A stretch of 64,000 bases of DNA from an uncultured delta proteobacterium (GTDB lineage Bacteria; Desulfobacterota; Binatia; Binatales; Binataceae). The stretch's first letter is position 1. Each line of letters opens with the position of its first letter. The position numbers and the translations under genes were made by a program. Below the pieces are notes generated by a model, which did no database searches, was not told the origin of the DNA, and saw only the letters and a list, made by a program, of their open reading frames with translations. Shown here piece after piece: positions 1-49,398 of the stretch. The stretch lies in the NCBI GenBank assembly GCA_963794325.1, contig CAWCDG010000003.1, forward strand, positions 1 through 64,000. Reading direction: 5' to 3'.

Positions 1-449
1 GCGATGAACGCCAGGAGCAGGGAAAGGAACGCCAATATTGATAACACGAAGGTAGCGACACGCCCGCTATAGGACAATCCAGTGGAAGTGCGAATATAGA
101 CCATGGCGGCGACAATGAAGGGAGTTATCGCCGCAACAAGAGAAATCGTCGCCGTTGACTTTCTCTCTAACTTCTCCTGCCGAGCTTCCTCCGTTTCATA
201 GACGAGCTTGCATATTGAGAGCTGGTCTTTATCGATGGTGCCTTCAGGCTTAGCCTGCGTTATCGACTGAGGAGAGGGAGGAAGATCCTGATAAGAAGAG
301 AGGGTGTGAGAAAACAGGTGACGTACATTCTTACCCCATTGAGCAATGATCTGTCGTGAGATAGGCCGCCGCTCAGGGGATCCCGCAAAATATTGACGTG
401 CTCGTTCCCCTTCTCCATTTGCCTTCGATCGCTGCGATTCTTCGACCAT
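1..449 (-). CDS. Hypothetical membrane protein, 3'-truncated by the window edge
   Basis: Manual translation from ATG 449: MVEESQRSKANGEG...ETEEARQEKLERKSTATISLVAAITPFIVAAMVY...VATFVLSILAFLSLLLAFI, with two hydrophobic helices. Starts 18 bp after the ATP-grasp stop; absent from the ORF track. Confidence 0.7.
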   Translation of the reverse strand, partial: MVEESQRSKANGEGERARQYFAGSPERRPISRQIIAQWGKNVRHLFSHTLSSYQDLPPSPQSITQAKPEGTIDKDQLSICKLVYETEEARQEKLERKSTATISLVAAITPFIVAAMVYIRTSTGLSYSGRVATFVLSILAFLSLLLAFI

Positions 450-467
450 CTTTGTTGAGTTCGGTTA

Positions 468-1404
468 CTAATAAAACAGTTTCACAAAAGCCTTCCGCAT
501 CGGTAGGCCAAGCGTCTGTTCGAGCCAAGCCCACTCGCCGGTCGGGTTCACCTCGAGGAAGAATAAGTCGCCATCAGGAGATCGAACAAAATCGAATGCT
601 CCATACGATAGACGAAGACCTCGAAGAAGCTGCCGACAGCGATCTCGATTCCCGCAGGAATCTTGACCGACCGATAGCGGAGGTGTTCTCCGGGACGGCG
701 CCAATCAAGAGGCTTTGTATCCGGCGAATCGATTTCAACAGCGAACACTTCTCTACCAATAAATGTTACGCGGATATCTGTTCCTTTTGGAACGCGCTTT
801 TGGAGGAGTGTCGGGCACGCCCGGAGCTGTTCGTCGTCACAAAGTTCGTCAGATTCCACTTGCCTCGTGTACACCGCATATCTTTCGCCGCCCTGAGAAA
901 CCAGACCCTGATAGATTGGCTTGCAAATCACACCATCGCGATAAGTAGATTCAAATTCGCGAAGCAAGTCGGGATCGTTGGTGACTATAGTAGGCGGAAT
1001 CATGAGCCCGAGTTCCTGCGCCAGTCGCAATTGGAACACTTTTCTTTCGGCGATTGGTACGCATCGATCGGGTTAACCCAAAGAATTGAGGGATCTAAAA
1101 TCAGCCCTTCGATTAGATGACGGAATTCACCGGCAACGAACGGTCGTTGTGCCGAATAAATGACTTCCGCGCTGCGCGGCGATATCATTCGTCGATACCA
1201 CACACTTCGGATGCTATTCAGGTCCACGCTCCGTCGGCCGATTGTATATCGACGCACCGTCTGAAGGCCGTTCGTCGAAAACAAGTATTCTGCCGCGTTA
1301 AGTTCTTCGGAATTGATCCGGAAGTAGGGGTGACCGGTTTCCATCAAATGGGCGATCAGGAAATCCGCGGTCAGATCTTCTTTGTTCGTAACTATGAGCA
1401 ACAT
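468..1404 (-). CDS. MvdC/MvdD-family ATP-grasp RiPP (graspetide) ligase, split by two apparent frameshifts (~1060, ~645)
   Basis: Three overlapping ORFs join into one protein: [14 protein letters not shown]...VWYRR...WVNP / [23 protein letters not shown]...KP...[14 protein letters not shown]...DWR / YGAFDF...[14 protein letters not shown]. Confidence 0.88.
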
Positions 1405-1425
1405 CGCGAGGGCTTAACCGGATAC

Positions 1426-1857
1426 CTACGACAAATCTTCCGACCAGTGGGTGACGCCAGGTTCTGCAGAATCCGTCGCGTGCTCTGTCTGATCCACCCC
1501 CTCTCTAGTCTCTGTGAGAGTGGTTTCACCGAACTGCGAAGACCTGAGACCTTCCGTCTGATCCGTCCCTTCCCGAGTTCGCGTCAGGACGGTTTCCCCA
1601 AATGACGAAACAGTGCTTGATTCAGATTGGTCTGTTCCCTCGCGAGTTTTCGTAAGAGCTGTTTCGCCGAATTCGGTTGTAGAAAGAGCATTCTCGCCCT
1701 GGACATAGGCCCGTTGAACAAGGGGCGCGCCAGAGTTGGCGTCTATCCACAACTGACGGTCGTTGTCGTAAATCTCCCAAGATCTCGGAGCCTTTTCGGG
1801 GAGTAACAACTGCTTGTTCTTGAGCACAAACGGCTCGATTTTCCCATCAGGTTGCAT
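1426..1857 (-). CDS. Multicore graspetide precursor (leader plus three TxxTxxxExxD cores)
   Basis: GGGAGG RBS before ATG 1857; leader with EPFVL and YDNDRQLW; cores FGETALTKTREGTDQSE, FGETVLTRTREGTDQTE, FGETTLTETREGVDQTE; directly upstream of the ATP-grasp gene. Confidence 0.88.
   Translation of the reverse strand: MQPDGKIEPFVLKNKQLLLPEKAPRSWEIYDNDRQLWIDANSGAPLVQRAYVQGENALSTTEFGETALTKTREGTDQSESSTVSSFGETVLTRTREGTDQTEGLRSSQFGETTLTETREGVDQTEHATDSAEPGVTHWSEDLS
1483..1671 (-). repeat. Three coding repeats with an exact 69-bp (23-aa) period
   Basis: The FGET Phe codons begin at 1671, 1602 and 1533. Confidence 0.9.
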
Positions 1858-2059
1858 GGCAGTACCTCCCATTCGAGGGCATCATTTTAGGTTATCAAGT
1901 TTCAATCCGAGTCCGAAGGAGCATCCGGCCCAACAAACCGGACTGACAGGCATGATGAATCTGTCGCAACCGACGAATTGGATGGTGGTCTCATTTTGCC
2001 GCCGAATAAGAGGTGAGCGCCAGAGACGAGTATGTAAGGACCGATCTTCGTCAAAATTG

Positions 2060-2297
2060 CTACGGTGTAGTGCCACCCTTCCGGTCCGACCGGACAAAAA
2101 ACTCTGCCACTTGAACGTCGAGGGCTCTCGGCGAGCTTCACGATGGTCGCCAACGAAGGGCTGCGCTTGCCGCGCAGGATCTGCGACAAGTGCCCTTTCG
2201 AGAAATCTGTTTCAAGATAGAAGCGATCCAGCGAGCCGTATTTCTGGATTACGATCTCGCGCAGCCTTCGGCGGAATAGAGCCTCCTCGTTTGCCAC
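2060..2297 (-). CDS. XRE-family HTH regulator with an apparent frameshift at ~2128
   Basis: SKGHLSQILRGKRSPSLATIVKLA; removing one base continues RALDVQVAEFF...TP* to TAG at 2060. Confidence 0.7.
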
Positions 2298-2408
2298 ATC
2301 GCGCGTGTAGCAAAAGCAGGCTGGCCCAGCGTTTGCAATTGCAAACGCTGGATACTGTCAGCGATGAGTGAAACGATCAATGGCCCCGCGACGCGAGGCG
2401 AAGTTTCT

Positions 2409-3389
2409 TCACGAGCTACCATTGCGCCCGTTACGATAAGGGTGTCCGTTGAGATGCCCATTCGTTTCGTGCACTTCGTAGCGTTGAAGCCGATTGTAGA
2501 GGTTCCGTCGGCTCATTCCGAGAAGATTGGATGCGCGAGCCTTATTTCCTCCGGCGAAGGCCAAGGTCCGGAAAATCAACTCGCGTTCGACCTCGCACAT
2601 TGCCGAGCCGACGCGAACCATGAAGTGCGCTTCTGCGGCATGGGAAGGAACGGACTCCATAGGCAGATCTCTTGCCGAGAGCATCGAAGAGGGGCACCTG
2701 ATAACTGCGCGTTGGACGACATTGCGCAACTCTCGAACGTTTCCGGGCCACGCGTGAGCTCGGAGGACATCGAGACAGTCTTGGCCCATGCCTTGGACTT
2801 TTTTCTTGTGTTCCCGATTGAATTCCTGGATGAAGTGCCCGACGAGCAAAGGCAAATCCTCGAGCCGGTCGCGCAGCGGAGGCAGCTCGACGGTGTAAAC
2901 GTTAAGACGGTAGTAGAGGTCCTCGCGCAATCGCCCCTCGCGGATCGCTTGATGCAGCGAACGATTGGATGCGGCGAAGACGCGCACGTCGATCGGCAGG
3001 TCTTTGCTTGCGCCGAGACGGAGAATTCTCTTCTCTTCGAGAACACGGAGCAGTTTGGCCTGCATCTCCGGCCGCATCTCGGTGATCTCGTCGAGCAGAA
3101 GGCTGCCGCCGTTCGCCCGCTCGAAGCATCCCTCGCGGCGGCGATCAGCGCCCGTAAAGGCCCCGCGCTCGTGGCCGAACAGTTCGCTTTCGATCAGGCT
3201 TTCAGGGACTGCCGCGCAATTGATTGCGACGTACGGTCGGTTTTGCCGCGGCGATCTGTCGTGGATCGCGCGTGCGGCCAGCTCTTTCCCCGTACCGCTC
3301 TCGCCAGTGATGATCACCGGCGCGCTCGTAGGAGCGGCTTCTTCAATCAGGCGTATGGCCCGGCGTATCGCTAGCGACTGACCAACCAA
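2409..3389 (-). CDS. Sigma54-dependent enhancer-binding protein (AAA+ plus Fis HTH) with no N-terminal sensor domain
   Basis: GESGTGKE, GAFTGA, LLLDE, REDLYYRL, WPGNVREL and C-terminal GNKARASNLLGMSRRNLY; the protein begins at the AAA domain. Confidence 0.9.
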   Translation of the reverse strand: MVGQSLAIRRAIRLIEEAAPTSAPVIITGESGTGKELAARAIHDRSPRQNRPYVAINCAAVPESLIESELFGHERGAFTGADRRREGCFERANGGSLLLDEITEMRPEMQAKLLRVLEEKRILRLGASKDLPIDVRVFAASNRSLHQAIREGRLREDLYYRLNVYTVELPPLRDRLEDLPLLVGHFIQEFNREHKKKVQGMGQDCLDVLRAHAWPGNVRELRNVVQRAVIRCPSSMLSARDLPMESVPSHAAEAHFMVRVGSAMCEVERELIFRTLAFAGGNKARASNLLGMSRRNLYNRLQRYEVHETNGHLNGHPYRNGRNGSS

Positions 3390-3457
3390 TGTTCGCTCGC
3401 GAGATACAAAATCACAACCCCCCGCCCCGCCGGCACGTTCGCAGAAAATAATCGGGC

Positions 3458-3466
3458 TGTGGATAA
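3458..3466 (-). promoter_or_regulatory. Perfect DnaA box (TTATCCACA)
   Basis: TGTGGATAA on the + strand, upstream of the bEBP gene. Confidence 0.4.
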
Positions 3467-3672
3467 GTTGTCAACAGGTTAATTTTGGTGACATTCTGCT
3501 GTTCACAGAATCTTAATAGTAGCGTCAGCTACTCTTGGCGACGGCTTCCTTTCCGTCCTAACTCGGACTCCAGGGAGCGATATCGTCAAATCATCGTGTT
3601 TCCATTTGATCGCTCAACCTCTCCACCCGCGCCACAGGCGCAATCTAGACTGTTCCGCCGGACGCCGTGCTC

Positions 3673-3763
3673 TGTGTGCAAAGTTTGCACACATGTAGGA
3701 GAGCAAGCCAAATTCCGAAATCGCCACGGACACTTACGATCGTGTGTGCAAAGATTGCACATG
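3673..3763. promoter_or_regulatory. Pair of palindromic operator/UAS sites, TGTGCA-N5-TGCACA
   Basis: TGTGTGCAAAGTTTGCACACA (3673-3693, perfect palindrome) and TGTGTGCAAAGATTGCACATG (3743-3763), 70 bp apart. Confidence 0.7.
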
Positions 3764-3868
3764 CACACATGCATTTTGGCCGTTTGATCGCCGAATCGGT
3801 CCACACCTCCGTCTCGATCAGAACGGCCTGAACATGAACGGTCATGCCTTGCGCATAGAATCCAAAAG

Positions 3869-3884
3869 CGGCACTGCAGTTGCT
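3869..3884 (+). promoter_or_regulatory. Sigma54 -24/-12 promoter upstream of the excisionase-like gene
   Basis: CGGCACTGCAGTTGCT (GG-N10-GC, close to consensus TGGCACG-N4-TTGCW), about 60 bp before ATG 3945. Confidence 0.65.
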
Positions 3885-3944
3885 CAATGACGCGTCGGAT
3901 GAGTGTGTGTGGTTGCGGGGATCTTTCGATGCCGGGGGTCTTCT

Positions 3945-4349
3945 ATGTCGTACCAACCGCCGCACCAAATCACTTCGCGGACAACATTGTCGTCCGCGAC
4001 TATCGAGGAACTCCTCACAGATCCATCGCGTACAAGAGGGTTGGTCCTCGAATCGGTGCCCGAACTTCTAACGCAAGTTGCGTCGCGCGTCGCGTCGCTG
4101 AAAACACTCGAGGGCGCGCTGCTCGCCCTGATGCTAAGTCAGCGGGTCGCGAACGGCGGCGCCAGGAACGTCGGCAGTGCGCTTCTGGCTGCGCCCGAAC
4201 TCGCCAAGCTCTTCTGCGTCCCGGAATCGTGGGTCAGAGAACAGGCTCGCCTCGGCAACCTTCCATCGTTCAAACTCGGCCACTACGTTCGCTTCCGGAT
4301 TGAAGAAGTCGAACGCTACCTCACAGAACGCGCCAATCAAGCCGCTTGA
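3945..4349 (+). CDS. Excisionase-family (HTH_17-like) DNA-binding protein
   Basis: C-terminal LLAAPELAKLFCVPESWVREQARLGNLPSFKLGHYVRFRIEEVERYL; GGGGGT RBS; upstream of the integrase. Confidence 0.75.
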   Translation: MSYQPPHQITSRTTLSSATIEELLTDPSRTRGLVLESVPELLTQVASRVASLKTLEGALLALMLSQRVANGGARNVGSALLAAPELAKLFCVPESWVREQARLGNLPSFKLGHYVRFRIEEVERYLTERANQAA

Positions 4350-4366
4350 CTTCCGCTTCTGTCGTG

Positions 4367-4383
4367 CTATACGCTGCGTATAG
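4367..4383. promoter_or_regulatory. Palindromic operator CTATACGC-T-GCGTATAG, overlapping a likely sigma70 promoter of the XRE gene
   Basis: Perfect 8-1-8 inverted repeat ending just before ATG 4385; TTGACT at 4346. Confidence 0.6.
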
Positions 4384-4384
4384 T

Positions 4385-4576
4385 ATGACTGCGGTGGAAA
4401 TTCGTGCGCTCAGAGAGAAATTGGGCTGGACTCAGATGGCCTTGGCCGAGGCCGTGGGAGTAACCTCGAACACCGTGGCTCGCTGGGAGCGCGGCGAAAT
4501 GGCGATCTCCGAACCGGCCTCCAGACTGCTCCAAAAAATCGCCGCCGAAGAAAAGTTGCGGATTGGGAAGAGGTGA
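4385..4576 (+). CDS. XRE-family HTH regulator
   Basis: IRALREKLGWTQMALAEAVGVTSNTVARWERGE. Confidence 0.85.
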   Translation: MTAVEIRALREKLGWTQMALAEAVGVTSNTVARWERGEMAISEPASRLLQKIAAEEKLRIGKR

Positions 4577-4583
4577 GGGCGCC

Positions 4584-5848
4584 ATGGCTTCAATCAAACG
4601 GTTCCACGAGAGCGGATGTAAGGGCGAGAATTGCGAGTGCGCGTGGCGGCTTGACTACCGGCCTCTCGGAACTAGGGGGCCACGCAAGCGGCTTTATTTC
4701 CCGACCAAGAAGGCGGCTGAGAAGCATCTTGCCCAGACATCCATAAAGGTCACGCGCGGCGAGTATCTCGACCGCAGGCAAGTTCCCACATTCGCCGTCA
4801 CGGCGGGGCAATGGCTCGAGTCCAAGATGGACCGCAGGCCCAGCTACACCGAGGCGCTGCGCGCCCGCCTCAACATTTATCTTCTGCCGCGCTTCGGCCC
4901 TCTGCGTCTCGACCAAGTTTCCGTCGCACCCATCGAAAAGATGCGCGACGACATGCGCGAGCTCGGCCGCTCCACGATTACGATCAACGCGACCATCCGA
5001 ATGATTGGCGGCATTTATCAAATGGCAATCCGCCGCGGCCTCTGCACAGCCAATCCCGCCGACCGCGTCGAACGCGCCTTCGCGGGAGACCGAGAACTCA
5101 ACGGCGGCGAAGATATCCAAGCCGACCAGGCAACCCCTGAGACGGTGCTATCGCCGGAAGAAATCAGCGTCATGCTCGGCAACGCCGATCCCGGCCTCTA
5201 CAAAACTCTCCTCACGTTTCTTGCCGCAACGGGCCTGCGCTCCGGGGAGGCGCTGGCCCTGCGCTGGTCCGATTGCCAGCTCGGCGGACCCGAGCCAAAG
5301 ATTTTTGTCCGGCGCTCCCTCTCCTGGACGCGCGTTCATGGCGAGGACGTGCGCCCGCGCTTCTATCCACCGAAAACAAAATCCGGCCACCGAGCGATCA
5401 CCATCCCGCCGGAACTCGCGACCGTCCTCAAAAAATGGCAGCTACAGTGCCCTCCGGGAGAACACGAGCTTGTCTTCCCAAATCCGAAGGGAAGCCCCTG
5501 AGGCGGTCTGTAGCCCTCCGGCGCGGCCTCTGGCCCGCGCTCCGTAGGGCAGGGCTCCGGCGCGTCAATATCCACAGCCTACGGCATTCGTTCGCATCCG
5601 CCCTGATCGCGGCAGGCAGCCCCGTCACAGAAGTGCAATCCATCCTTGGTCACAGCTCGCCGGCGATCACCCTAAACGTCTACGCGCATTGGTTCCGCGC
5701 GACCAAGACGACGGCTATGGCGAGCGTCGTCCGAAACCTGCTTAAGACCGGACCGAAAAAAAGTGGGCAAAAAGTGGACAAAAATAGAGTGCCGAGCATC
5801 GCGCCCGGCGAGGGGCGCCTCGCCCAGATTTCTCAAAACCCCTTATAA
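4584..5848 (+). CDS. Tyrosine recombinase/integrase with an apparent frameshift at ~5485
   Basis: GLRSGE, PKTK, then (second frame) HSLRH, LGHS and VY catalytic residues; adjacent to the tRNA. Confidence 0.9.
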
Positions 5849-5866
5849 TACTTGGTCTAAAAGAGA

Positions 5867-5950
5867 TGGTGCGAGAGGGGGGACTTGAACCCCCACGCCT
5901 TGCGGCACTGGATCCTAAGTCCAGCGCGTCTGCCATTCCGCCACTCTCGC
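5867..5950 (-). tRNA. tRNA-Leu(TAG)
   Basis: GCGAGAG acceptor stem, CTGGA-CTTAGGA-TCCAG anticodon arm, long variable arm, GGTTCAAGTCC T-arm, CCA end. Confidence 0.97.
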
Positions 5951-6369
5951 GTGAGTTAGAAAATATTGGAAAACCGGGACCGGTTGAAGGGCCGCATTGC
6001 TATTGAGGCGGCTTCTTCACGACGGGGCTCTTGGCAACAGATCGGGGGGTCGGCGCGGACGCGTTCAGCCTTCGCGATAAGCGCGGACAGCTTCCGAAAG
6101 CGTGGGCGACTCGATCAGCAACGTCAACGTTCGGCTTCCGCTCGCCGGGCTCCATAGAGACAAACGTAGGGGTGTTGGATGCCGGGTGGAGAACGGCGGC
6201 CGGCTTGTCCAAAGCCATCACCTTCAGGAGCCGGCATTCAGGTCAAGACTCGCGACAGAGAGTCATGAATCGAAACTTCGCTCGATGACGTACTAGTTGT
6301 GGGTTTGTAAAAACCTAAACATTCATTCATGTCTGATTGTTTCGAAATGTCATCACGCTGAAGTCGACG

Positions 6370-6786
6370 ATGAAAGAGCGACAATTAGGCGACATCTTAA
6401 AAATTCTCCGCGAGAAAAGCGGGCTAACACAGCGCGAATTGGCGCGCAGCGTCAGGGCGACAGCTTCGCACATTGCTTTTATCGAGTCTGGCAGGCGGCG
6501 TCCCTCGCATTCTCTCCTATTCAGGTTGTCGCGTAGTCTGCAGGACAACCAGCAGGAACTATTCCTGGTCGCCTATCCCGAATTGGGACCGCTTACATTG
6601 CCCCACCCACGAACCGATAGGCGCGAGTCCACATGGCGCCGCTTCGTTGCCTGCGCGAGCCGATATTCGGTAACTCCTGAGGAGATGGCAGTTCTGCGGA
6701 AGATATCCCGGTTGAGCAAGATTTCGTCGCCGGATTCATATTTCTGGATTCTGAATTCGATCAGGCAGTCATTCGAAGAAGACTGA
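6370..6786 (+). CDS. XRE-family transcriptional regulator
   Basis: LKILREKSGLTQRELARSV...IAFIESGRRRPS. Confidence 0.8.
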   Translation: MKERQLGDILKILREKSGLTQRELARSVRATASHIAFIESGRRRPSHSLLFRLSRSLQDNQQELFLVAYPELGPLTLPHPRTDRRESTWRRFVACASRYSVTPEEMAVLRKISRLSKISSPDSYFWILNSIRQSFEED

Positions 6787-6842
6787 TTTCGACGGAAACA
6801 CAGTCGGCTGCCGCATCCCTCGCGTCGAGAGGGCAGCGTTTT

Positions 6843-7184
6843 CTATGCGTCATTGCGGTATTTTCCATTCTTGGGGAGGTGCGCGCGTGCGACTTCAAAT
6901 CGTAGGTCTTTGAGTCCGCGCACCATCCGGCGCAAGGCACGAGCCTCGCCAGTGAGAATCTTTGACACCTCCGCGTCGAACACGCTCTCGGCGGCGATCA
7001 TCGCTATCTCTGTTGCGCCGTTTTCGATCTCGTTTCCGACAAATTTCAGTTCCTTGACGAGAGCGTTCTGGTCCGCTTGAAAGCAGCTTCGTTCGCTATG
7101 CAGCTCAGACCTGATATGACTCCTTGTCTGGTTGTGTTTCGAATGTCGAATAGACACAAGCAACCCCCCTGAGTGTTTATGCAT
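6843..7184 (-). CDS. Small helical hypothetical protein, paralog of 7468-7731; start uncertain
   Basis: Shares TEI(A/S)M(I/V)AAE(S/N)VFD and AR.L.RM.R.L.DL with the neighbouring ORF. Confidence 0.6.
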   Translation of the reverse strand: MHKHSGGLLVSIRHSKHNQTRSHIRSELHSERSCFQADQNALVKELKFVGNEIENGATEIAMIAAESVFDAEVSKILTGEARALRRMVRGLKDLRFEVARAHLPKNGKYRNDA

Positions 7185-7299
7185 GACTGAAGTTATTTAA
7201 GTGCACAACTCAGTGTTTGACAATAAGGGACGTTTTTGACATTTAGTGGCATCTGTCGTAACAATTAGGTGATGCCGAAGCCTGGTCCGTAGCGCCAGC

Positions 7300-7449
7300 C
7301 TGACCGACTACCTCGAAGTCGTCGCCGAGATGCTCGGCTTCTCCGACTTGAGTGCGTTTTCGCGCTGGTTCAAGCGACGCTTGGGGCTCAGTATTTCGGT
7401 ATGGCGGGCGATCAATCAGACGAGCGGCAAATCTCAAACTGTGCTTTAG
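7300..7449 (+). pseudogene. AraC-family C-terminal HTH remnant
   Basis: Manual translation EVVAEMLGFSDLSAFSRWFKRRLGLS...*; no N-terminal part, in-frame stop just upstream. Confidence 0.65.
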
Positions 7450-7467
7450 GGTGCTGGGCCGGTCGCG

Positions 7468-7731
7468 CTACTTCCTCGCACGGTGGAATTTCGCCCAGGC
7501 CAGCCTCTTGCCCAAGTCGTCCAGGCGTCGGGCCATGCGGTCAAGCTCGCGCGCCTTTCGCTTGAGTTTTGCGGACAGGGGCTTGTCGAACACGTTCTCG
7601 GCCGCGACCATCGAAATTTCGGTCAGCGCACGTCGGATAGTGAGCTGAACATCCTTCACCTGACCGATGAGGACGCTTCGGTCGAATTCAAAGACATATC
7701 GTTCGCCTTCTATTTTGGATCCCGGTCTCAA
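7468..7731 (-). CDS. Small helical hypothetical protein, paralog of 6843-7184
   Basis: TEISMVAAENVFD motif shared with the paralog. Confidence 0.6.
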   Translation of the reverse strand: MRPGSKIEGERYVFEFDRSVLIGQVKDVQLTIRRALTEISMVAAENVFDKPLSAKLKRKARELDRMARRLDDLGKRLAWAKFHRARK

Positions 7732-8140
7732 TCACGAACCGCTTCCTTGGCGAACTTCGAGCCGCCAAACGGACGTGCCAATTGACCAAGGCGCCTAAAG
7801 CCAGCGCAGCAAACGAGCTGGTTTGGAGAACAACCGGACTATGACAAGTTGTCTGGCACAGCGGAAGAAGGCATGGAACACAAACAACATCGGCTCGACG
7901 AATCGAGTTGGAGATTTGCGACTTTGGCTTGACTCACTGTCGATCCAAATCCAGATCGAAATAGATGAGACGAAAATAAATACATAACCGTTTCCGGTTC
8001 TTGACGATGCCAGAGGAATGCTGCATCTAGTTCTCCAGGCTTGCGCAAATGTCGAGTATGCCCAAGGCTCTGGGCAGGTTTGGGGGGCGTTACTCACAGA
8101 AGAACGATGGGCAGGCTGATTGCCGAAACTAAAGACCACC

Positions 8141-15278: not shown

Positions 15279-16805
15279 CTACTCGATACCGTACTTCGCG
15301 ATCTTTGCGTAGAGCTTTTTGCGCGAGATCTTCAGCAGCTTGGCGGCGCGCAGTTTGTTGCCGTCGGTCGCCTCGAGTGCGCCGCGGATTAGCGCCTGCT
15401 CTGCATCGGCAAAACTACCTACCGGAACTGCCGGCAGCGTAGATGCGCGTTCGGAGGAATGCGAACCGGCTATTGAGGCGGGCAGATCCTGCAATCGGAT
15501 CACGGGCGTGCGGCTGAACGTGAATGCGCCTTCGATCGCGTTGGCTAGTTCGCGCACGTTGCCCGGCCACGAATACTGGCGCATCGCCTCGAGAGCAGCG
15601 TCCTCGATTCCGGTGACGGGCACCGCTCGCATCTGGCGGGCGTTGAACACCTCGATAAAATGTTCGGCGAGCAGACTGACGTCCTCAAGGCGCTCCCGCA
15701 GCGGCGGTATCTGTATGACTCCGGCCTGGAGACGATAGTAGAGGTCGTTGCGAAGCCGTCCCGCATCGACTGCCTCCTGCGGATCGCGATTGGTCGAGGC
15801 GATGAGGCGCACATCCACCGCGACCTCCTTGGTAGATCCGACCGGACGCACGGTGCGCTCCTGGATAGCGCGCAGCAGTTTGCTCTGCGTATCGGCGCTC
15901 ATCTCGGTGACCTCGTCCAGGAACAGCGTGCCACCTTCCGCCGCGCGGAACAGTCCCAAATATTCGGTGTTCGCGCCGCTGAACGCGCCGCGCTTGTATC
16001 CGAATAGCTCGCTCTCGATGAGGTCCCGCGGTATCGCCGCACAGTTCAGCGCGACGAATGGCGCCGACGGCTGCTGGCTGCATTCATGGATAGCGTGCGC
16101 CACCAGCTCCTTGCCTGTGCCACTCTCGCCGACGATCAGAATCGTGCCGCGCGTCGCGCCCGCAGCTTCCACCCGGTCGTACATCTGACGCATTGCGCCA
16201 CTGGCGCCGACCAGGCCGTGGAACCGGCTGCGCGAATGTTTCGGAATCGCCGCAGCTTCGCGTTCGAGCGCCTGTATTCGCGCTCCCGCGACGGCGGTCT
16301 TCGACTGGAAGTAGGTATCGGCCAGCACGATCATTCGAATGTGACTCAGCTTGTCGAACGACTGGTAGATTCGCGGCATCAGGGGCGGAAACACCGGAAA
16401 TACGGTGGCCGCGCTTTCCTCGAACAGATGCATCGAGACGATCAGTTCCGAGAACGGCACGCCGCGCTCAGCCAGCAGCTCTCCGATTCGCGCGATGTCG
16501 GCGGCGAAGCGGTCCATGTCTTTGTCGAGTAAGTCCCTGAGCGTCGCATCGAGCTCGTTACCGAAGATCTCGACGAACTCGACGCGGCTCAGCGCGCGAG
16601 TATCGGCAAAGTGCAGCACGTAGAGTTGGTACCAATGGTCCAGCACGCGGTCGCGATTCTTCTGGACAGACTCCAGCACCGAACGGAGATCGTCGAGCTC
16701 CTCCTCCCACAACAAGTGAAAGTAACGGGGACGTCCGCTTGGCATTGAAGCGGGAAGAATCGGGGGGACGTCGGGCTTCATCTGGACTGGCTCGAAAGGC
16801 GTCAC
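15279..16805 (-). CDS. Sigma54 enhancer-binding protein with an N-terminal globin-like (RsbR-N/protoglobin-like) domain
   Basis: GESGTGKE, GAFSGA, WPGNVREL, Fis HTH; helical N-terminus RVLDHWYQLY...IGELLAERGVPF. Confidence 0.88.
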   Translation of the reverse strand: MTPFEPVQMKPDVPPILPASMPSGRPRYFHLLWEEELDDLRSVLESVQKNRDRVLDHWYQLYVLHFADTRALSRVEFVEIFGNELDATLRDLLDKDMDRFAADIARIGELLAERGVPFSELIVSMHLFEESAATVFPVFPPLMPRIYQSFDKLSHIRMIVLADTYFQSKTAVAGARIQALEREAAAIPKHSRSRFHGLVGASGAMRQMYDRVEAAGATRGTILIVGESGTGKELVAHAIHECSQQPSAPFVALNCAAIPRDLIESELFGYKRGAFSGANTEYLGLFRAAEGGTLFLDEVTEMSADTQSKLLRAIQERTVRPVGSTKEVAVDVRLIASTNRDPQEAVDAGRLRNDLYYRLQAGVIQIPPLRERLEDVSLLAEHFIEVFNARQMRAVPVTGIEDAALEAMRQYSWPGNVRELANAIEGAFTFSRTPVIRLQDLPASIAGSHSSERASTLPAVPVGSFADAEQALIRGALEATDGNKLRAAKLLKISRKKLYAKIAKYGIE

Positions 16806-20443: not shown

Positions 20444-21589
20444 ATGGCATATCTTTCGACGACAGACTTCACCCAGGACAAGGACTTCATCGATAAGTGG
20501 CTGTACACGATAAGGACCGGCGAGATGGACCTGTCGTGGATGAAATCCGCGACTGAGAAAATCAGTCCCGAAGAGGCTAACCCGCGCCGCGGACTGACCT
20601 ATCGCGACCTCAACGTCGGCACCTATGGCTACACCGACATTCCGGAGAAGGTGCGCAACAATCGATCCTATGCGCCCCGCGGCGCCGAGATTCCCGAAGG
20701 CGTTCCCGATGCGCAGCCATGGGTCTCGCGCAAGAGCGAGCTATGGGCTTTCAACACCGAGAGCTATTACGAGGAAGCTGTGTCGCGTCAGTGGAACGCA
20801 ACCACTGACATTCCATGGGACAGGCTTGATGGCGTCGAGCTACCGGAAGTAACCGGCAAGGCGCTCTCGCAGTTGATGACGTTCCTGACTGAAGTGGAAA
20901 TGATCGCGACTGACACGCCTGCGATGTGGCTGCCGCGTCTCAATCCGGACTTTATCGAAGTGCGCGCGTTCATCGCGGCGCAGGCGATGGACGAGGCGCG
21001 TCACGCCGAGGTCTTCCGCAAGCGCGCGCTCACGACCGGATGGGGCCTGATGCAGGCGAGTCCTATCAACGAGATGGCGCTGAAGCATCTGCGCGACGCC
21101 GATTCTTTCAGCGAGATGTCCGTCGCGCTTCATCTTGTGGCAGAAGGCAACGTGCTGACGCTGTTCCGCTTCAGCGAATATCTGTCACCGACCGACGTGG
21201 ACAAGAAAATCTTCCGGCTCGTGATGCAGGATGAAGCGCGTCACGTCGGCTATGGCATGCAGCATTTCAAATACGTGCTCGAGCATTTCCCCGAGAAGCG
21301 CGAAGTATTGCACGCGCATCTCGACGAAGCCGAGAACATTTCGTTCGCCGGCGCCGCCGCAACCGAGCTGACCGAAGCTTTTATCATTCTCGCCGGTGGC
21401 GGACTGAAGAAAGAGAACATCGAGCAGGGCATCAAGATCACGACCCAGTTCAACCTGAAACAAATGCAGGAGCATTTCGAGCGCCTGGATAAGTGTGGGA
21501 TGCCCGAGCGTCGCGAGCGTTCAAAGCTCTATAAGATGTACGAGATGGGCCGAGCCGCCGCCGAAAACGCCGGCATCAAACTGAACTAG
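20444..21589 (+). CDS. Ferritin-like diiron enzyme (catalytic subunit)
   Basis: FLTEVE, MDEARH, VAEG and QDEARH form a complete carboxylate-diiron ligand set. Confidence 0.85.
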   Translation: MAYLSTTDFTQDKDFIDKWLYTIRTGEMDLSWMKSATEKISPEEANPRRGLTYRDLNVGTYGYTDIPEKVRNNRSYAPRGAEIPEGVPDAQPWVSRKSELWAFNTESYYEEAVSRQWNATTDIPWDRLDGVELPEVTGKALSQLMTFLTEVEMIATDTPAMWLPRLNPDFIEVRAFIAAQAMDEARHAEVFRKRALTTGWGLMQASPINEMALKHLRDADSFSEMSVALHLVAEGNVLTLFRFSEYLSPTDVDKKIFRLVMQDEARHVGYGMQHFKYVLEHFPEKREVLHAHLDEAENISFAGAAATELTEAFIILAGGGLKKENIEQGIKITTQFNLKQMQEHFERLDKCGMPERRERSKLYKMYEMGRAAAENAGIKLN

Positions 21590-21601
21590 GTCTCAAGCAT
21601 T

Positions 21602-21686
21602 CCGGTCCCCCTTCCCGCCGGGAAGAGGTTACTCTCCGCAGATTGGTTCCCCTTCCCTCGAGGGAAGGGGTTAGGGGTTAGGTTCC
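21602..21686. repeat. REP-like element doublet
   Basis: CCGGTCCCCCTTCCC-GCC-GGGAAGAGG and GGTTCCCCTTCCCTCGAGGGAAGGGGTTAGGGGTTAGGTTCC. Confidence 0.75.
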
Positions 21687-21688
21687 GA

Positions 21689-22807
21689 ATGGCATTTTAC
21701 GCTGACAAAGATTACACAGTAGACGAAACAGTCCTCCTAGCCGCCCAGAAGGTGATGGAGGGACACTTAGGCCTTCATTGGTACGACGCCAAGACTGAAC
21801 GCCTAGCCGGTCGCCCGTCAGATCCCAAGCGCGGACTCACCTACCAGGACTTGAACGTCGGCACCTACGGCTACACCAACATTCCGGAGGACGTCCGCAC
21901 CAGCCAGTCGATGGTTTCGCGCGGCAGTGAGAAAGTCGGCAAACTTCCCGACATGGGCTACGTCGTCAATCGCAAGTCAGACGTATGGTCCGACAACGTC
22001 GCGGAGCTTTACGAAGAGGTAAAGGCGCGGCGATGGGTTCCGGCGACCGATATTCCATGGACCGAGCTCCACACCAAGCCGCTTCCACATGACCTCGAGA
22101 TGGCCTGCGCACAGCTCTACACCTTCCTGCAGGAATGCCAGATCGTGTCGATGGACTTTCCATCGAAGTGGGTCGCGCTGATCAACCAGGACTTCCTCGA
22201 GCTCAAGAGCTGGATGTGCGCGCAGATGCTCGACGCGTCACGCTTGTTCGAAGTGTTCCGCAAGCGTGCGCTGTTCGGCGGCGCGGGCCTCGGACGCGCC
22301 AGCGCGACGGCGGAGCAGGGACTCAAGGAATGGCTGTGGGCGGATCAGTTCCCGCAAGGATCAGTCTCGATCAACTTGTCGCTCGCCGGATTTCTCCTCA
22401 CGCTATATCGCCAGGTGGGCGCGTTCGCACCGACCAACGTCGATCGCAAGATCATGCGCTATGCGATGCAGGACGCAGCGCGCCAAACCGCCTACGGTCT
22501 CGGCCAACTGCGCTACCATCTGAAGCATCGTCCGCTCGAAGCGAACGCGATCGAAGGCTACCTCGATCACACTGAGCACGCCTTGCTCGGATTGATCGGC
22601 AGCCCCGAGCTGCTCGAGCCGATGATCATCATCTGCGGCGGCGGACTCGAAAAGGCGCAGGTGGACAAGGGCCGCGCCGCGACCGCAAAGTTCATCAAGC
22701 TGGCCGTCAGCGAATACATGGAGCGAATCGCCGCCGCCGGCCTGACCGGTCACGCCAAGCGCAGCAAGATCCCCACGATGATCGATCGGATTTCGGCCAC
22801 CGCGTAG
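21689..22807 (+). CDS. Ferritin-like paralog lacking iron ligands (putative structural subunit)
   Basis: Shares RGLTY.DLNVGTYGYT.IPE with the upstream gene; both DEARH motifs are replaced (DASRL, DAARQ). Confidence 0.8.
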   Translation: MAFYADKDYTVDETVLLAAQKVMEGHLGLHWYDAKTERLAGRPSDPKRGLTYQDLNVGTYGYTNIPEDVRTSQSMVSRGSEKVGKLPDMGYVVNRKSDVWSDNVAELYEEVKARRWVPATDIPWTELHTKPLPHDLEMACAQLYTFLQECQIVSMDFPSKWVALINQDFLELKSWMCAQMLDASRLFEVFRKRALFGGAGLGRASATAEQGLKEWLWADQFPQGSVSINLSLAGFLLTLYRQVGAFAPTNVDRKIMRYAMQDAARQTAYGLGQLRYHLKHRPLEANAIEGYLDHTEHALLGLIGSPELLEPMIIICGGGLEKAQVDKGRAATAKFIKLAVSEYMERIAAAGLTGHAKRSKIPTMIDRISATA

Positions 22808-42571: not shown

Positions 42572-43960
42572 TCAGGGCCGATAGTTTGCTAAAAACCGTA
42601 CTGCTCGAATTCCCGGAACAAAAAAGTAGCCGCCCCCTTTCATCACAACAAATTGCGGAAGTCGGCGAAGATGACGGTTGATCGGCTTTGCTTGAATTGT
42701 GAATTCTCCACTGTTGGAACTATCGCCGACCAGCGGATCCCTATCGTTATCCAGCCCATTGAAGGACGGATCGTTAATCCATTGTTGCTGAACGAATTCG
42801 TACTGACGCCGGAGGTCAGCATTGAGCACTATAAAATACAGGCCTTGCTCGTTTTTGGGATTGTCTTTGGCTGAGCCCTTGGTTGGCGATGAAAACTTTC
42901 GTCCTCGCCGGATCAGGCGATGGCGCCTGGATATCAGAATTGATCTCGATGGCGGCATATCCAGCGAATCGCGCGGATTGGCACGTCGAATATGTGAACC
43001 GATCGGACACACCGTGCCGTCGGGATCGGTCTCCATGAAAAGAAAATCGTTGCGAGGTTCCGAGCCGGGCGCATCGGGCGATAACACCAGCGGAGCGCCG
43101 CTTCGCCATCGGCCAACTATTTTCGCGGCATTGAGCTCGCGCTGCTCCCGGGTAGCGGCGCTGTTGTCGATGTAGTTCCGGAATTCGTCAACCTTCTGAA
43201 TCAATTTCCGAAAAACCAGGTAAGTGCCGTTCAGTCCAAACGCACGTTTGCCGGGTCTCGAAGGATGATCGGCTAAATCGCCCAACGGATCAGCCCAACT
43301 CGCGATACTTGGAATTTGAGTCAGATGATTCAGCTCGTTCTCATAGCCGAGTACGAACTCTCCGGTACTTATCGGAGATTCGGCTTGTTTCCGTCGCCCC
43401 AGGAGTCCTTGCACGAGAGGCTGCGAAATTCCATCGCGGTAGCCGAAAGGTTCGGTTTCGTCGCCGGGCGGGATGACAGAATCCTGCTCCGCGATCACGC
43501 TCAGTCCTTGGCTAAATTGAGGAGAGCCAGTGACTTGGCCGTGCAACGATTGCAGATACTGATTAGTTGAAGCGTAAAGCATGAGTAGCACGTGCAGGGC
43601 AGGTTGCTTCTGCCGGCCGTACTCCCATTCATCTTCATTTTTATCGCCCAATACCAAGTCAGCGTCACTTCCGTTCATTCCCCTTTCGAACTCATGCGAG
43701 AAGTCTTGGAGATCGGGAACCAATGTTTTGAGTCCCGTCGAACCAAACGCGAGATTGACGCAGACCCCGGCCTTGTTATCGCCCGGATGCCGCGCGTTCG
43801 TGATTCGAGAAACAATGCCGGCTAGCCACTGTCTCGTCGCGTCGGGATCTCTGATCTCGAGAAGCACGAAACGGGAATAGTCCAGGTGGTCATATCCGCT
43901 GGCTACGATTCCCTGGATATCTTCGCGGTTCACCACTCTCGGGGTCGTTACTATGTTCAT
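42572..43960 (-). CDS. DyP-type heme peroxidase
   Basis: DIQG, FGYRDGISQP, GSHIRRANPRD, RRG, GGGYFFVP. Confidence 0.9.
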   Translation of the reverse strand: MNIVTTPRVVNREDIQGIVASGYDHLDYSRFVLLEIRDPDATRQWLAGIVSRITNARHPGDNKAGVCVNLAFGSTGLKTLVPDLQDFSHEFERGMNGSDADLVLGDKNEDEWEYGRQKQPALHVLLMLYASTNQYLQSLHGQVTGSPQFSQGLSVIAEQDSVIPPGDETEPFGYRDGISQPLVQGLLGRRKQAESPISTGEFVLGYENELNHLTQIPSIASWADPLGDLADHPSRPGKRAFGLNGTYLVFRKLIQKVDEFRNYIDNSAATREQRELNAAKIVGRWRSGAPLVLSPDAPGSEPRNDFLFMETDPDGTVCPIGSHIRRANPRDSLDMPPSRSILISRRHRLIRRGRKFSSPTKGSAKDNPKNEQGLYFIVLNADLRRQYEFVQQQWINDPSFNGLDNDRDPLVGDSSNSGEFTIQAKPINRHLRRLPQFVVMKGGGYFFVPGIRAVRFLANYRP

Positions 43961-43962
43961 AG

Positions 43963-45465
43963 CTATACCAAGGCCAATAGACTGCGAACTCGCCGGCGGA
44001 TTGGGCCTATAGCCATTTCGTCGAGGAGTCTGTCGCGAAACTCCACGTACCGCAGCAGATTAACTAAAGAGAAGTTGCGGTAGGCGGAGTAAAATACCGG
44101 CGCGGGCGCATAGTGCTCGGCTGCCTGCGTCTCAAAGCCTTCCAGATCATGGGCGCCGTCCAAGGTGATAAACTTTGTTTCCGGGAAACCGATCGTGTTG
44201 CCCCATACCAGGTTGACACCCCACGCTTCGTCTGAGAAATCGCTCAGATAAGAGGACCAGCTGCCATCATAGTTTGAAAAAAAGATTAGCTGTTGGTCGA
44301 TCAGCGTCCAGCGCGCGAAATGGATCGTACTCATCTGATCCAGTTTGCCAAGTATGAAAAAGTATTTGAACAGTACAGGTCCGAGCCATAGCGCGCGTCT
44401 AAGCACATACATTCTGAACCAGCCGGGCTTGACGGTTGCATAGGTACATATATGGTTCTGACGGCCCAGATCCAGAAGCCTGTATACCGGCGAATGCCAG
44501 GTTGGATCGAACAGTCCCGGACTCCGTTCCTCCCCATCCTCAAAATATCGCCCAGCAAGATTAATCACGATCCAACGACCGAAGTAGAGTAGTGGTAAGA
44601 GACACAGCAACGTCAGGCCCGCGACCATACCTATCTCGAACAAACTGGTGAGCCCTTTCCACCAACAGTACAAAGGACTCAAGACGATTGGGAACGCGAG
44701 ACACAGCAGTGTCAGGACCGCCATATTCATACCGAGTAGATGCCTGAGCCCGTTCTGCGTGACCGGAAATCGAATAGGCTTCTCCGGCGCCTTCGTTTTG
44801 AAATGCTCGATAAGACTGGATGCCAGCTTTTTCGGGTCGCTGCTCTTGTTCGATGGGTTATCGATGAAGTCCTTTGCTTCATCGTAAACGGCTATCGCGT
44901 TTCTTATATCCTTGAGCGATCGACCCGGTAACGCGACGTAGTAAGCGTAGGTATCTATTGAGGAATGCGGTCCGTTCCGATACTTGGCGAGCAAAAAAGC
45001 TTCGACCGACGGCGCGTCAGATCCTTTAGGCGGATAACCTGGAAAGTAGCTATAAACCTCATCGAGTTCCTGTCGGCAGTTGGCGACCAGGTCTTTGAGA
45101 TGATCCTCGAGGTTTCCGTCGTAGTTCGTTTCGAACGCAAGCTTCGCTGGTCCAGCAGGCTGTTTCGGATCAGGATTGTTAATTCCAGGGAGGATCATCC
45201 ACGCGGCGTAATGCACAGTCGCGGTGTTGTTAAACGAGACGTTTTGATTTCCATTGAGTCTGGTACGAATGTCTTCCAGCGTCTGAGATAGAGCGTCCTT
45301 CTTAGCTGGTTCGATATCCGTCAAAATCAGCATCCCGCTCTGCTGCACATAACCCGGTCGAAGACCGAGAAAGGATAGCTTGGACGCAAGAATATCGCCG
45401 GGACGTCGAAGAACGAGGGAGACAAGGAAACTGCCGACCTGACCTATACGATCGCGAAGAGTCAT
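43963..45465 (-). CDS. DyP-associated protein with duplicated NYDG domains and a central TM hairpin
   Basis: VHYAAW...FETNYDG and IHFARW...FSNYDG; two central hydrophobic helices; 2 bp from dyp. Confidence 0.8.
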   Translation of the reverse strand: MTLRDRIGQVGSFLVSLVLRRPGDILASKLSFLGLRPGYVQQSGMLILTDIEPAKKDALSQTLEDIRTRLNGNQNVSFNNTATVHYAAWMILPGINNPDPKQPAGPAKLAFETNYDGNLEDHLKDLVANCRQELDEVYSYFPGYPPKGSDAPSVEAFLLAKYRNGPHSSIDTYAYYVALPGRSLKDIRNAIAVYDEAKDFIDNPSNKSSDPKKLASSLIEHFKTKAPEKPIRFPVTQNGLRHLLGMNMAVLTLLCLAFPIVLSPLYCWWKGLTSLFEIGMVAGLTLLCLLPLLYFGRWIVINLAGRYFEDGEERSPGLFDPTWHSPVYRLLDLGRQNHICTYATVKPGWFRMYVLRRALWLGPVLFKYFFILGKLDQMSTIHFARWTLIDQQLIFFSNYDGSWSSYLSDFSDEAWGVNLVWGNTIGFPETKFITLDGAHDLEGFETQAAEHYAPAPVFYSAYRNFSLVNLLRYVEFRDRLLDEMAIGPIRRRVRSLLALV

Positions 45466-45484
45466 GGATCAGTTCCCCTGATTT

Positions 45485-45973
45485 CTAGCGAACGTCATAC
45501 ACCACTGAGTGTTGAGACGCCTTATACGCTCCTAAGACAATGAGCACACCGGGAAGAAATGACGTTGCGCCGCTCACTCCCACCAATACTATGTTTAGCC
45601 AGTTGAGAGGGAATGGTATGGCCATCGTCTGATGCCATTGATTCAGTGTCGCGTCGGGAGGATGGTGTGCGAAACCAGCAAAGAGCACTGCAAGCGCTGC
45701 GATGAATGTGTAACCGCTAATGACAAACGACCAGACAAGCCATGACACTCCCCTTGCGGTCAACTCCAGCAGAGGCAAAGCCATGCTCGCAGCTAGCATG
45801 AATATTCCGGTGACCAATAGGATGGCGTGCCCCTGCCTCAAATACTGGCGAACGGGATCGTTCAGGAAATGGAAAAAAGCTCTCGGAAGTCCAGGATAAG
45901 CGGCAAACATTGTGGAAATCAGTACGAAGACTCCGCCATGAAAAATCAGGCGAATCTGGCTGCGGCGTATCAT
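45485..45973 (-). CDS. Four-TM membrane protein, possibly styrene-oxide-isomerase (StyC)-like
   Basis: Four hydrophobic segments; LIFHG and RQGHAILL..G His motifs. Confidence 0.6.
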   Translation of the reverse strand: MIRRSQIRLIFHGGVFVLISTMFAAYPGLPRAFFHFLNDPVRQYLRQGHAILLVTGIFMLAASMALPLLELTARGVSWLVWSFVISGYTFIAALAVLFAGFAHHPPDATLNQWHQTMAIPFPLNWLNIVLVGVSGATSFLPGVLIVLGAYKASQHSVVYDVR

Positions 45974-49000: not shown

Positions 49001-49398
49001 TGGTCTTCGAGTTCCTCGTTAAGTTCGCGCAGCTTGCGTTTGTATGCCTGCTTCGCTTGCGCGTCGAGCATCGGGCCGGAATCGCCGAGTCCGCCTACGC
49101 TGTGGGCACCCTCAATTCGTAGTGAAGTCCCATGATCGATCTGACTGTGGCTCATCGATTCTCGATCGTTCATCAGATCGAGTGAATGGAATTCCTCGCC
49201 CGGGTGCTGCAGCAAGCGCTGGATATAACTGAGACCCTTAACGTCCCTGAGCGAGAAGGTCGTGTCCCTGTAGCCGAGGGTCCAAAAGTCACCGCACGAA
49301 ACAAAAGTGCCAGTCGCCGCCGCTGCAATTCCGGGAGATTCCACTCCCCGTACACGGTCCTCTGACTCTCTCTCAATCGTCGCCAAAGAAACCCCCAA
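46063..49398 (-). CDS. STAND-type AAA ATPase/TPR regulator with an N-terminal putative DNA-binding domain
   Basis: FVGRE, GQPGVGKT, LEDLQWAD, GNPFF, FSHELIR, helical repeats. Confidence 0.85.
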   Translation of the reverse strand: MGVSLATIERESEDRVRGVESPGIAAAATGTFVSCGDFWTLGYRDTTFSLRDVKGLSYIQRLLQHPGEEFHSLDLMNDRESMSHSQIDHGTSLRIEGAHSVGGLGDSGPMLDAQAKQAYKRKLRELNEELEDQHERGDLARAERIESEIDFLNREMARAVGMGGRDRRAGSAAERARLNVTRAIKTALQKISEQQTELGAMLDRSVRTGLFCCYITDPHAPISWQFSLEGIKNTVEADEMTAPLLLRSETDFLRELEDQTRFVGREEERAAMRRSLEGIRRGQGRALMIGGQPGVGKTRIAKEFGAEAAQRGFLTLAGGCYDREDSVPFCPFVEILETLAQAASPVSFRAALGHDAAELARLVPQLRRMFPDIPKPLELPPDQSRESRRLLFNAFREFLARNASERPVFLLLEDLQWADEGTLSLLNHVSRSLGEMPVVIVGTYRDDEVEGGGPLAQTLDQLTRLHLSERIGLRGLPRDAVAEMIQALSGHEPPPALVTLIHSNTEGNPFFVEELYRHLAERDQLTDSNGEFLRDLKLADVDVPHSLRLAIGRRLARLGGETQKILGTAAVIGRSFTFDLLEAATGVDPDLLLDRVEEVEKAGLISSTLQFPEARFQFSHELIRKAVLADMSAPRRQRSHLQIAEAIERVYPGALEERVNDLAHHLHQAGVVADSAKTVRLLSMAARRARLQGALTETGDLYRDALQVLKRMADTRERDQLELGLQLSVGAVLMATRGYADARTAAAYRRASDLGERLGDPTQVVLALTGLVTPPLLRGELDAAKAIADQALAASQRHGKSKTQIWGHHIAGVVQYHRGQFESAWDLLGQAHSEYQEEEHSKNPHDPGILVLEYMALTAWQLGMADTARRRMREALSLSDRLQKPFGLARCGFYAAYLHALMRDPGPALEFSEKSIKWSTEYSIQLYLDASRIVYGWAIAKQERGAEGVACLRAAIESFKAADNRLGMATYLGFLAEALLCAGLPEEAIATVEQGLNLALQEPMNFSYLWWLRGELLLKNAGPEGIVQILRLDKSSLDEAEKSFRTALSLAIDIGAKPYAIRSATSLGRLLLARGKAIEAKGIVEPLLKSVTEGLDTRDIVDARQLVTDLS

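Follow-up and report, generated by a model that had tools for sequence, protein, structure and literature searches.

The cores of group 3 graspetides, the thuringinins, end in TxxTxxxExxDxD. The clusters that encode them carry a membrane gene, described without a function in the consulted part of 10.1101/2021.05.19.444834, and section 7 of PMC8939145 guesses peptide transport for the protein family concerned ('cluster 18'). In the supplement of PMC8939145, cluster2946 (Idiomarinaceae HL-53), cluster6751 (Xanthomonas NCPPB1131) and cluster6621 (Psychrobacillus) are entered as known members of group 4 (gr_04) of Lee 2020, and the ligase of cluster2946 is assigned to Branch_Thuringinin. That survey holds few group 4 members, against 151 precursor clusters in the present search, and the parts consulted propose no function for the group 4 membrane gene. 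Herein, we analysed positions 1-64,000 of contig CAWCDG010000003.1 (the window, i.e., the whole 64,000-nt stretch), in which a cassette of precursor, ligase and membrane gene occupies the minus strand of positions 1-1857 and the operon runs off the window at base 1. Both the class of peptide and the occurrence of a membrane gene have been published; what thuringinin-branch graspetides and their membrane gene do in nature is the question that we address with a hypothesis built on PycTM and defence islands.

PycTM is a ligand-activated, membrane-disrupting effector of abortive infection (PMC11224242), paired in Pycsar with the cyclase PycC. The cassette has a precursor and a ligase in place of the cyclase, and its membrane partner weakly but repeatedly matched three PycTM models. 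We propose, with a probability of roughly 0.45, that the cassette may be a cyclase-free intracellular anti-phage module in which a cyclised peptide controls a PycTM-like effector. A further comparison is offered by the lanthiphages (10.1101/2024.06.26.600839), clusters for ribosomally synthesised and post-translationally modified peptides that lie in defence islands or mobile elements, mostly lack a transporter and act inside the cell. They differ in their class I lanthipeptide chemistry and in a reported action on phage transcription without host toxicity, and a membrane effector is not mentioned in the parts of that source consulted.

The cassette and its graspetide group

The cassette comprises the following features (aa, amino acids; ORF, open reading frame).

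1..449, minus strand: first 149 aa of the membrane partner, which continues beyond the window edge (110 bits with the family profile)
468..1404, minus strand: graspetide ATP-grasp ligase of about 312 aa, in three frames with breaks near 1057 and 641 (profiles and tblastn)
1426..1857, minus strand: graspetide precursor of 143 aa, with a leader of about 70 aa, three cores and a short tail (ORF and homologues)
1747..1836, minus strand: region of predicted ligase recognition in the leader, with motifs EPFVL and YDNDRQLW (YDxxRQLW) (homologue conservation)
1621..1662, minus strand: core 1, TxxTxTxExxDxxE (motif)
1552..1593, minus strand: core 2, TxxTxTxExxDxxE (motif)
1483..1524, minus strand: core 3, TxxTxTxExxDxxE (motif)

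A GGAGG ribosome site lies 7 nt ahead of the precursor ATG. The first Thr codons of the three TxxTxxxExxD cores are at 1662, 1593 and 1524, giving a period of exactly 23 aa; when the precursor protein was shuffled 100,000 times, three cores arose in none of the shuffles and two cores in 10. An initial annotation, made from the DNA letters alone, had described a three-core TxxTxxxExxD graspetide locus with a leader EPFVL...YDNDRQLW, an ATP-grasp ligase and a closely linked membrane protein, and each of these elements was borne out. The homologue search returned 151 precursor clusters at E<=0.01 among 263 candidates, the closest being 94% identical over its full length, and 120 of the 151 were used for motif counts. 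The leader motif P[FYC][VI][LI] was found in 106 of these 120 and Q[LIV]W in 119, the predicted recognition motif being of the Phhxh type of PMC8939145, and GG ahead of the first core was rare (8/120).

Core conservation was counted over 429 repeats anchored on G-E-x8-G alone, so as to avoid circularity. T1 was retained in 423 repeats, T4 in 400, T6 in 402, E8 in 416, D11 in 421 and E14 in 400. The family core is TxxTxTxExxDxxE, with three possible donors and three acceptors. Since all six are conserved, up to three esters per core may be possible, and the loss of about two waters per core that had been expected in the initial annotation is possibly too low, as T6 and E14 are also conserved. 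The number of cores ranges from 1 to 5 per precursor, and their sequence is nearly constant across phyla.

The conserved C-terminus of the precursor, (Y/H)SHF, was considered and rejected as a functional motif: 81 of the 120 homologues end in [ST]H[FL], but the tail is an alternative frame of the overlapping ligase start, an overlap present in 8 of the 8 loci checked (L002, L004, L005, L006, L007, L009, L011 and L013). A promoter and terminator scan gave signals at chance level, and neither the precursor nor the L015 partner had a tblastn match among plasmids.

Judged by its genes, the locus is a three-gene graspetide cassette of the thuringinin branch. Thuringinin itself (group 3, Bacillus thuringiensis) shares with the window family the multi-core precursor, the single ligase, the TxxTxxxExxD spacing and the membrane gene. 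However, the cores of the window family open with a fixed FGE and end in D-Q-x-E, whereas those of thuringinin end in D-x-D, an ending seen in 0 of the 3 window cores and in 2 of 397 homologue cores (D at position 13). The earlier assignment to thuringinin-type group 3 thus holds for the branch and fails for the group. The frame (S/D)(F/W)GET..T.T.EG.DQ.E was common to the window precursor and to cluster2946, cluster6751 and cluster6621, and the leader pattern P..L...YD...QLW together with the repeated GET..T.T.EG.DQ.E was likewise shared with Lee group 4, both comparisons being made by eye. The FGE...DQxE frame that had been taken as distinct and new is therefore already present in catalogued gr_04 precursors, and the window peptide is probably a further member of that catalogued group, group 4, and not of group 3. 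The gene order also differs from that of a thuringinin-like locus on a Bacillus thuringiensis plasmid (L025), where ligase, membrane gene and precursor follow one another. In that locus (4572-7230), the N-terminus of the ligase is replaced by an unrelated segment beside an IS6 transposase.

A scan of GTDB genomes gave 39 pattern matches, from which 17 loci (L001-L017) were retained; L004 and L016 are near-identical and were counted as one event, and several of the 17 are shortened by contig ends. A ligase homologue follows the precursor in 17/17 loci. L010 and L013 end before the third gene, leaving 15 loci with DNA downstream of the ligase, and the order precursor, ligase, transmembrane (TM) gene was found in 14 of these 15, across many phyla, which makes the membrane gene a true conserved partner. 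L012 is the sole one of the 15 without the TM gene. Its segment 758-2017 is a cassette remnant with a split and truncated ligase.

The ligase pieces of the window match consecutive stretches of two models for graspetide maturases, TIGR04187 and TIGR04185, and the first piece matches PF21068 (MvdD pre-ATP-grasp domain); as parts of a split gene, the pieces score under the NCBIfam cut-offs for full-length proteins. The breaks were placed by tblastn with the unbroken L001 ligase, to which the window ligase is 69% identical. When the breaks were read as X, 46 of the 46 residues invariant in 15 related ligases were found to be retained, and the gene has no internal stop. The enzyme is a plain one of 310-320 aa without an extra sensor domain. 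That it might instead be a RimK-like housekeeping enzyme, with the repeat protein incidental, finds some encouragement in a weak RimK-family match of the last piece (E 6e-4) and in the RimK-like annotation of some plasmid homologues. We regard this as having next to no probability and rejected it, given that the family ligase profile matched five graspetide ligases of solved structure at E 1e-47 to 1e-67 and one further at 2e-17, as compared with 2e-6 for RimK, and that precursor and ligase are linked in all 17 loci. By these scores the ligase is a member of the MvdC/MvdD clade, so the grouping with precursor-less RimK enzymes that the initial annotation had considered was not what was found.

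The membrane partner, PycTM and defence neighbours

The membrane ORF starts at 449, 18 nt past the ligase stop, and two TM segments are predicted in its visible 149 aa. A homologue search with this fragment alone gave 38 candidates and zero at E<=0.01, and the family was reached via the related loci; it comprises 519 clusters at 50% identity (E<=0.001). Three TM segments were predicted in 118 of 146 family members, and an AlphaFold model (predicted local distance difference test score, 89) consists of long helices. In L006 (9423-10778), the partner is fused to an OmpA-family domain. Such a fusion would place the C-terminus outside, in the periplasm, and the conserved segments RRxxLExK, RA and NxxxNDH on the cytoplasmic side. 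The identities of ligase and partner co-vary over 19 loci (Spearman 0.855, a value reached in 0 of 2000 permutations); this covariation shows joint inheritance, not physical contact. The gene after the partner is not conserved across the loci, and there is no conserved fourth gene.

With the family profile, a partner homologue was also found downstream of the ligase in five cassettes whose precursors carry other core motifs, four on plasmids and one in a Leptospira prophage (28-45 bits). Weaker matches were obtained for L024 (9.4 bits) and for the membrane protein of the thuringinin-like Bacillus locus (7.2 bits), while the best of 37 unrelated multi-TM ORFs reached 4.1 bits. The partner family may correspond to the cluster 18 named in section 7 of PMC8939145. 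Two loci with ligases of other clades had different downstream genes: in L023, no match to the partner profile was found, and in L027 a methyltransferase lies downstream of the cassette. In the ligase tree, which included no labelled group 4 ligase, L001-L017 were set apart from the plasmid and prophage ligases. The prophage locus (L022, 4886-6580, Leptospira phage KF114876.1) is a cassette of group 5 type whose membrane gene is homologous, and its annotated precursor covers just the last 37 aa of the true one.

The partner family was compared with PADLOC models at E<=0.01. Three PycTM models were matched by 17, 13 and 8 of the 146 members (25 distinct members), and the next family after PycTM by 3. 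The best alignment, that of the L015 partner, covered positions 4-152 of the 160 of the PycTM model (E 4.4e-6). Among the proteins downstream of the ligase in plasmid and phage cassettes, 3 of 7 matched PycTM at E<=0.04 (L018, 3e-5; L020, 1e-4; L021, 0.04), and those of L019, L022, L023 and L024 gave no match. As a control, 41 proteins from the host part of the window, including several membrane proteins, were compared with PycTM at 1e-3, and none matched. Compared with PycTM, the partner is longer at both ends, by an N-terminal segment of about 55 aa and a C-terminal extension. On balance, the partner family is rather probably a distant homologue of PycTM. A PycC-type cyclase was not among the PADLOC matches listed for 144 neighbouring ORFs of the 17 loci, the 3' side of the window cassette lying beyond the window. 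Against the PDB and BFVD, Foldseek found no match to the partner at E<=0.001, VIA-align returned generic helical bundles (best Z 10.9), and the partner profile retrieved a single, irrelevant entry from the PDB sequences; PycTM was absent from the matches listed, and these searches have no bearing on the PycTM link. A Pfam scan of the partner family gave no consistent family and no recurring transporter family among the 25 of 51 families listed.

The neighbours of the 17 loci were scanned with PADLOC over 144 mechanically picked non-cassette ORFs (142 at 1e-8, plus two). Multi-gene defence systems were present within 8 kb in 5/17 loci, as follows.

L002 and L009, within 8 kb: SIR2-HerA (PADLOC)
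L009 and L010, within 8 kb: restriction-modification (PADLOC)
L014, within 8 kb: CBASS (cyclic-oligonucleotide-based antiphage signalling system) with E1/E2/JAB (PADLOC)
L006, within 8 kb: candidate pair PDC-M30 (PADLOC)

Single PADLOC matches of mixed value were found in a further six loci (L001, L004, L005, L008, L015 and L016). In the host part of the window, a weak control, generic matches below 1e-8 were found in 3 of 41 proteins, none forming a system. For scale only, since the method differs, lanthiphages were called defensive at 26.6% as compared with 5.6% for other clusters (10.1101/2024.06.26.600839). Signs of mobility included an integrase (L017), a relaxase (L009), plasmids and a prophage. 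The intracellular conflict or defence role at which the initial annotation had guessed gains independent support from the PycTM matches of the partner and from these neighbours.

Two loci deserve separate mention. The cassette of L024 (77-7512, a Rhizobium plasmid) has one core and a membrane gene that is weakly related, and it sits between an annotated ABC (ATP-binding cassette) three-component system and an AbiE toxin-antitoxin pair. In L008, the cassette is directly preceded by an operon of four genes (1692-7814) that resembles, by eye, a GTPase-associated conflict system and the last protein of which has a nucleoside-phosphorylase-type effector domain.

Proposed function and rival explanations

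In the proposed mechanism, the ligase would bind the PFVL leader and, driven by ATP, join the Thr hydroxyls of the cores to Glu/Asp carboxyls, so that, by established graspetide chemistry, two and possibly three esters would form in each of the three cores. Since neither a double-glycine site nor a conserved protease or ABC exporter was seen, the polycyclic protein would stay in the cytoplasm with its leader attached. There, the co-inherited three-TM protein, a putative distant relative of PycTM on weak sequence similarity, would face it with its conserved polar residues, and the cyclised repeats could replace the nucleotide signal. We favour a guard or antitoxin logic, in which constitutive peptide would hold the effector closed; if the peptide were lost, cleaved or captured during infection, the effector would be freed, leading to membrane disruption and abortive infection. 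As the ligase has no sensor domain, its product would probably be made constitutively, which favours this logic; moreover, a core that is nearly constant across phyla in 1 to 5 copies suggests a fixed recognition partner and not a fast-changing foreign target. A comparable logic is known from Panoptes, in which a constitutive decoy nucleotide restrains a TM effector. The likeness lies in the logic: a constitutive product checks a membrane effector in both, but the ligand is a nucleotide in Panoptes and would be a peptide here.

A broader proposal, which we put forward tentatively and consider rather doubtful, is that thuringinin-branch cassettes of groups 3-6, perhaps 7, may form a widespread unrecognised class of abortive infection, in which a cyclised repeated peptide gates a PycTM-related effector. 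If so, the 'uncharacterised membrane protein' of these clusters would be an effector and not an exporter, and the result would be a peptide-gated form of bacterial immunity and a function for hundreds of clusters (519 partner clusters). In the literature searched, from which most subscription journals were outside and where prior publication is possible, no link from the thuringinin-branch membrane gene to PycTM or to defence islands was found, and those supplements of PMC13097080 that were consulted gave zero matches for Pycsar terms.

Several results weigh against an anti-phage function. The similarity to PycTM is weak, as 121 of the 146 partner members miss at E<=0.01; the window's own 149-aa fragment gave no PADLOC match, and no Pycsar family was among the 25 of 51 Pfam families listed for the partner. 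Six of the 17 loci (L003, L007, L011, L012, L013 and L017) are without a credible PADLOC neighbour, a single host stretch of 56 kb is the background for neighbourhoods, and islands gather mobile cargo whatever its function. The absence of a protease and an exporter refers to the part of the locus neighbours scanned, and either could act from elsewhere in the genome; the remark in the initial annotation that neither is visible covers the operon as far as base 1, its 3' end lying outside the window. Finally, according to PMC8939145, all characterised graspetides are protease inhibitors, and the transport guess for the thuringinin-locus membrane protein comes from the same source.

These last points are the basis of a more conventional explanation, namely that the product is an ordinary secreted protease-inhibitor graspetide, that the membrane protein is an exporter, scaffold or immunity factor, and that the island location reflects horizontal spread. 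Strict co-inheritance would suit an exporter equally well, and the six loci without defence neighbours fit too. We nevertheless consider it unlikely, because the partner is predicted to have three TM segments in most members, no transporter family recurs among the Pfam matches listed, its recurring match is to an abortive-infection effector, and GG precedes the first core in just 8 of the 120 precursors. A defence function with the opposite logic, in which the effector is off until a phage event yields the cyclic peptide as an activating multivalent ligand, shares the PycTM similarity and the neighbourhood data with the guard logic. The trigger would be a phage protease that releases the cores, or activation of the ligase, and the peptide would be the counterpart of the Pycsar second messenger; PycTM is indeed ligand-activated (PMC11224242), and repeated cores could cluster effector subunits. 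This we hold to be quite improbable, as the ligase is a plain enzyme without an extra sensor domain and related ligases need no phage to cyclise their precursors, be it in E. coli or in vitro. Such phage-free cyclisation is known for ligases of groups 3-6. It has also been shown for the fuscimiditide ligase (10.1101/2021.05.19.444834).

Whatever the function of the family, the window copy might be a decaying remnant in which ligase, XRE gene and integrase are truly broken. Four frameshifts (two in the ligase, one each in the XRE gene and the integrase) fall in the first 6 kb, compared with none evident in the host part (8-64 kb), where ORFs are mostly whole, 44 of 56 kb lie within unbroken ORFs and 31 of 54 scanned ORFs have a Pfam match. 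This concentration fits very recent decay as well. However, the breaks of ligase and integrase coincide with short base runs, a pattern suggestive of long-read error in an island that was poorly polished. No in-frame stop interrupts the ligase, all its invariant residues are retained, cassette genes are also split in other loci from metagenome-assembled genomes (L001, L012 and L016), and a 94%-identical precursor exists elsewhere. Decay of the window copy is thus possible, if doubtful. The guard logic that we favour predicts harm from an intact partner whose ligase is truly dead; under it, the breaks would be errors or the partner would be broken past the window edge. In our favoured reading, the ligase breaks of this copy are either sequencing errors or very recent.

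The integrative element and the host part

Upstream of the precursor, the window contains the following features (HTH, helix-turn-helix; tRNA, transfer RNA).

2063..2297, minus strand: small XRE-type HTH gene upstream of the precursor, with a frameshift near 2128 and an approximate 3' end (HTH_3)
2409..3389, minus strand: sigma-54 activator with AAA and HTH domains, without an N-terminal sensor domain (family match)
3903..4576, plus strand: excisionase-like HTH_17 gene and XRE gene of an integrative element (family match)
4563..5848, plus strand: tyrosine integrase, frameshifted near 5480 (family match and frames)
5867..5950, minus strand: tRNA-Leu(TAG), likely attachment site (tRNA prediction)

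The integrase and the excisionase-like HTH gene lie on the 3' side of the tRNA-Leu. It is plausible that the cassette is carried inside this tRNA-Leu element, as the initial annotation had stated; a second copy of the tRNA 3' end (att repeat) was not found within the window, and the far boundary of the element lies out of sight. The GC content of the cassette is 0.50-0.53 and that at third codon positions 0.50-0.56, whereas the integrase and five genes of the host have 0.59-0.62 and 0.68-0.80, which makes the cassette foreign even to the integrase. The XRE-type HTH gene at 2063-2297 is a possible regulator. The sigma-54 activator at 2409-3389 starts at its AAA domain and has host-like GC; at 44% identity with the host activator at 15279-16805, it is not a recent duplicate.

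A probable operator pair is formed by two near-identical 19-bp palindromes of the TGTGCA..TGCACA type (3673-3691 and 3743-3761), spaced 70 bp apart in the region that separates the sensor-less sigma-54 activator from the divergent excisionase-like gene. On the far side of the tRNA-Leu (6337-7731), in a stretch of lower GC, an XRE gene is accompanied by two short ORFs that resemble each other and belong to no known family.

Further along the host part, two paralogous proteins of about 375 aa (20444-22807, plus strand) had no Pfam match at 1e-5, and DEARH-type motifs in the first suggest, by eye, ferritin-like di-iron proteins. A three-gene block at 42572-45973 (minus strand, GC 0.52-0.53) likewise had no Pfam match at 1e-5, its first protein resembling by eye a Dyp-type peroxidase. 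Two large AAA_16 ATPase/TPR proteins (46063-49398, minus strand; 52403-55963, plus strand) lie on either side of ferritin and catalase genes.

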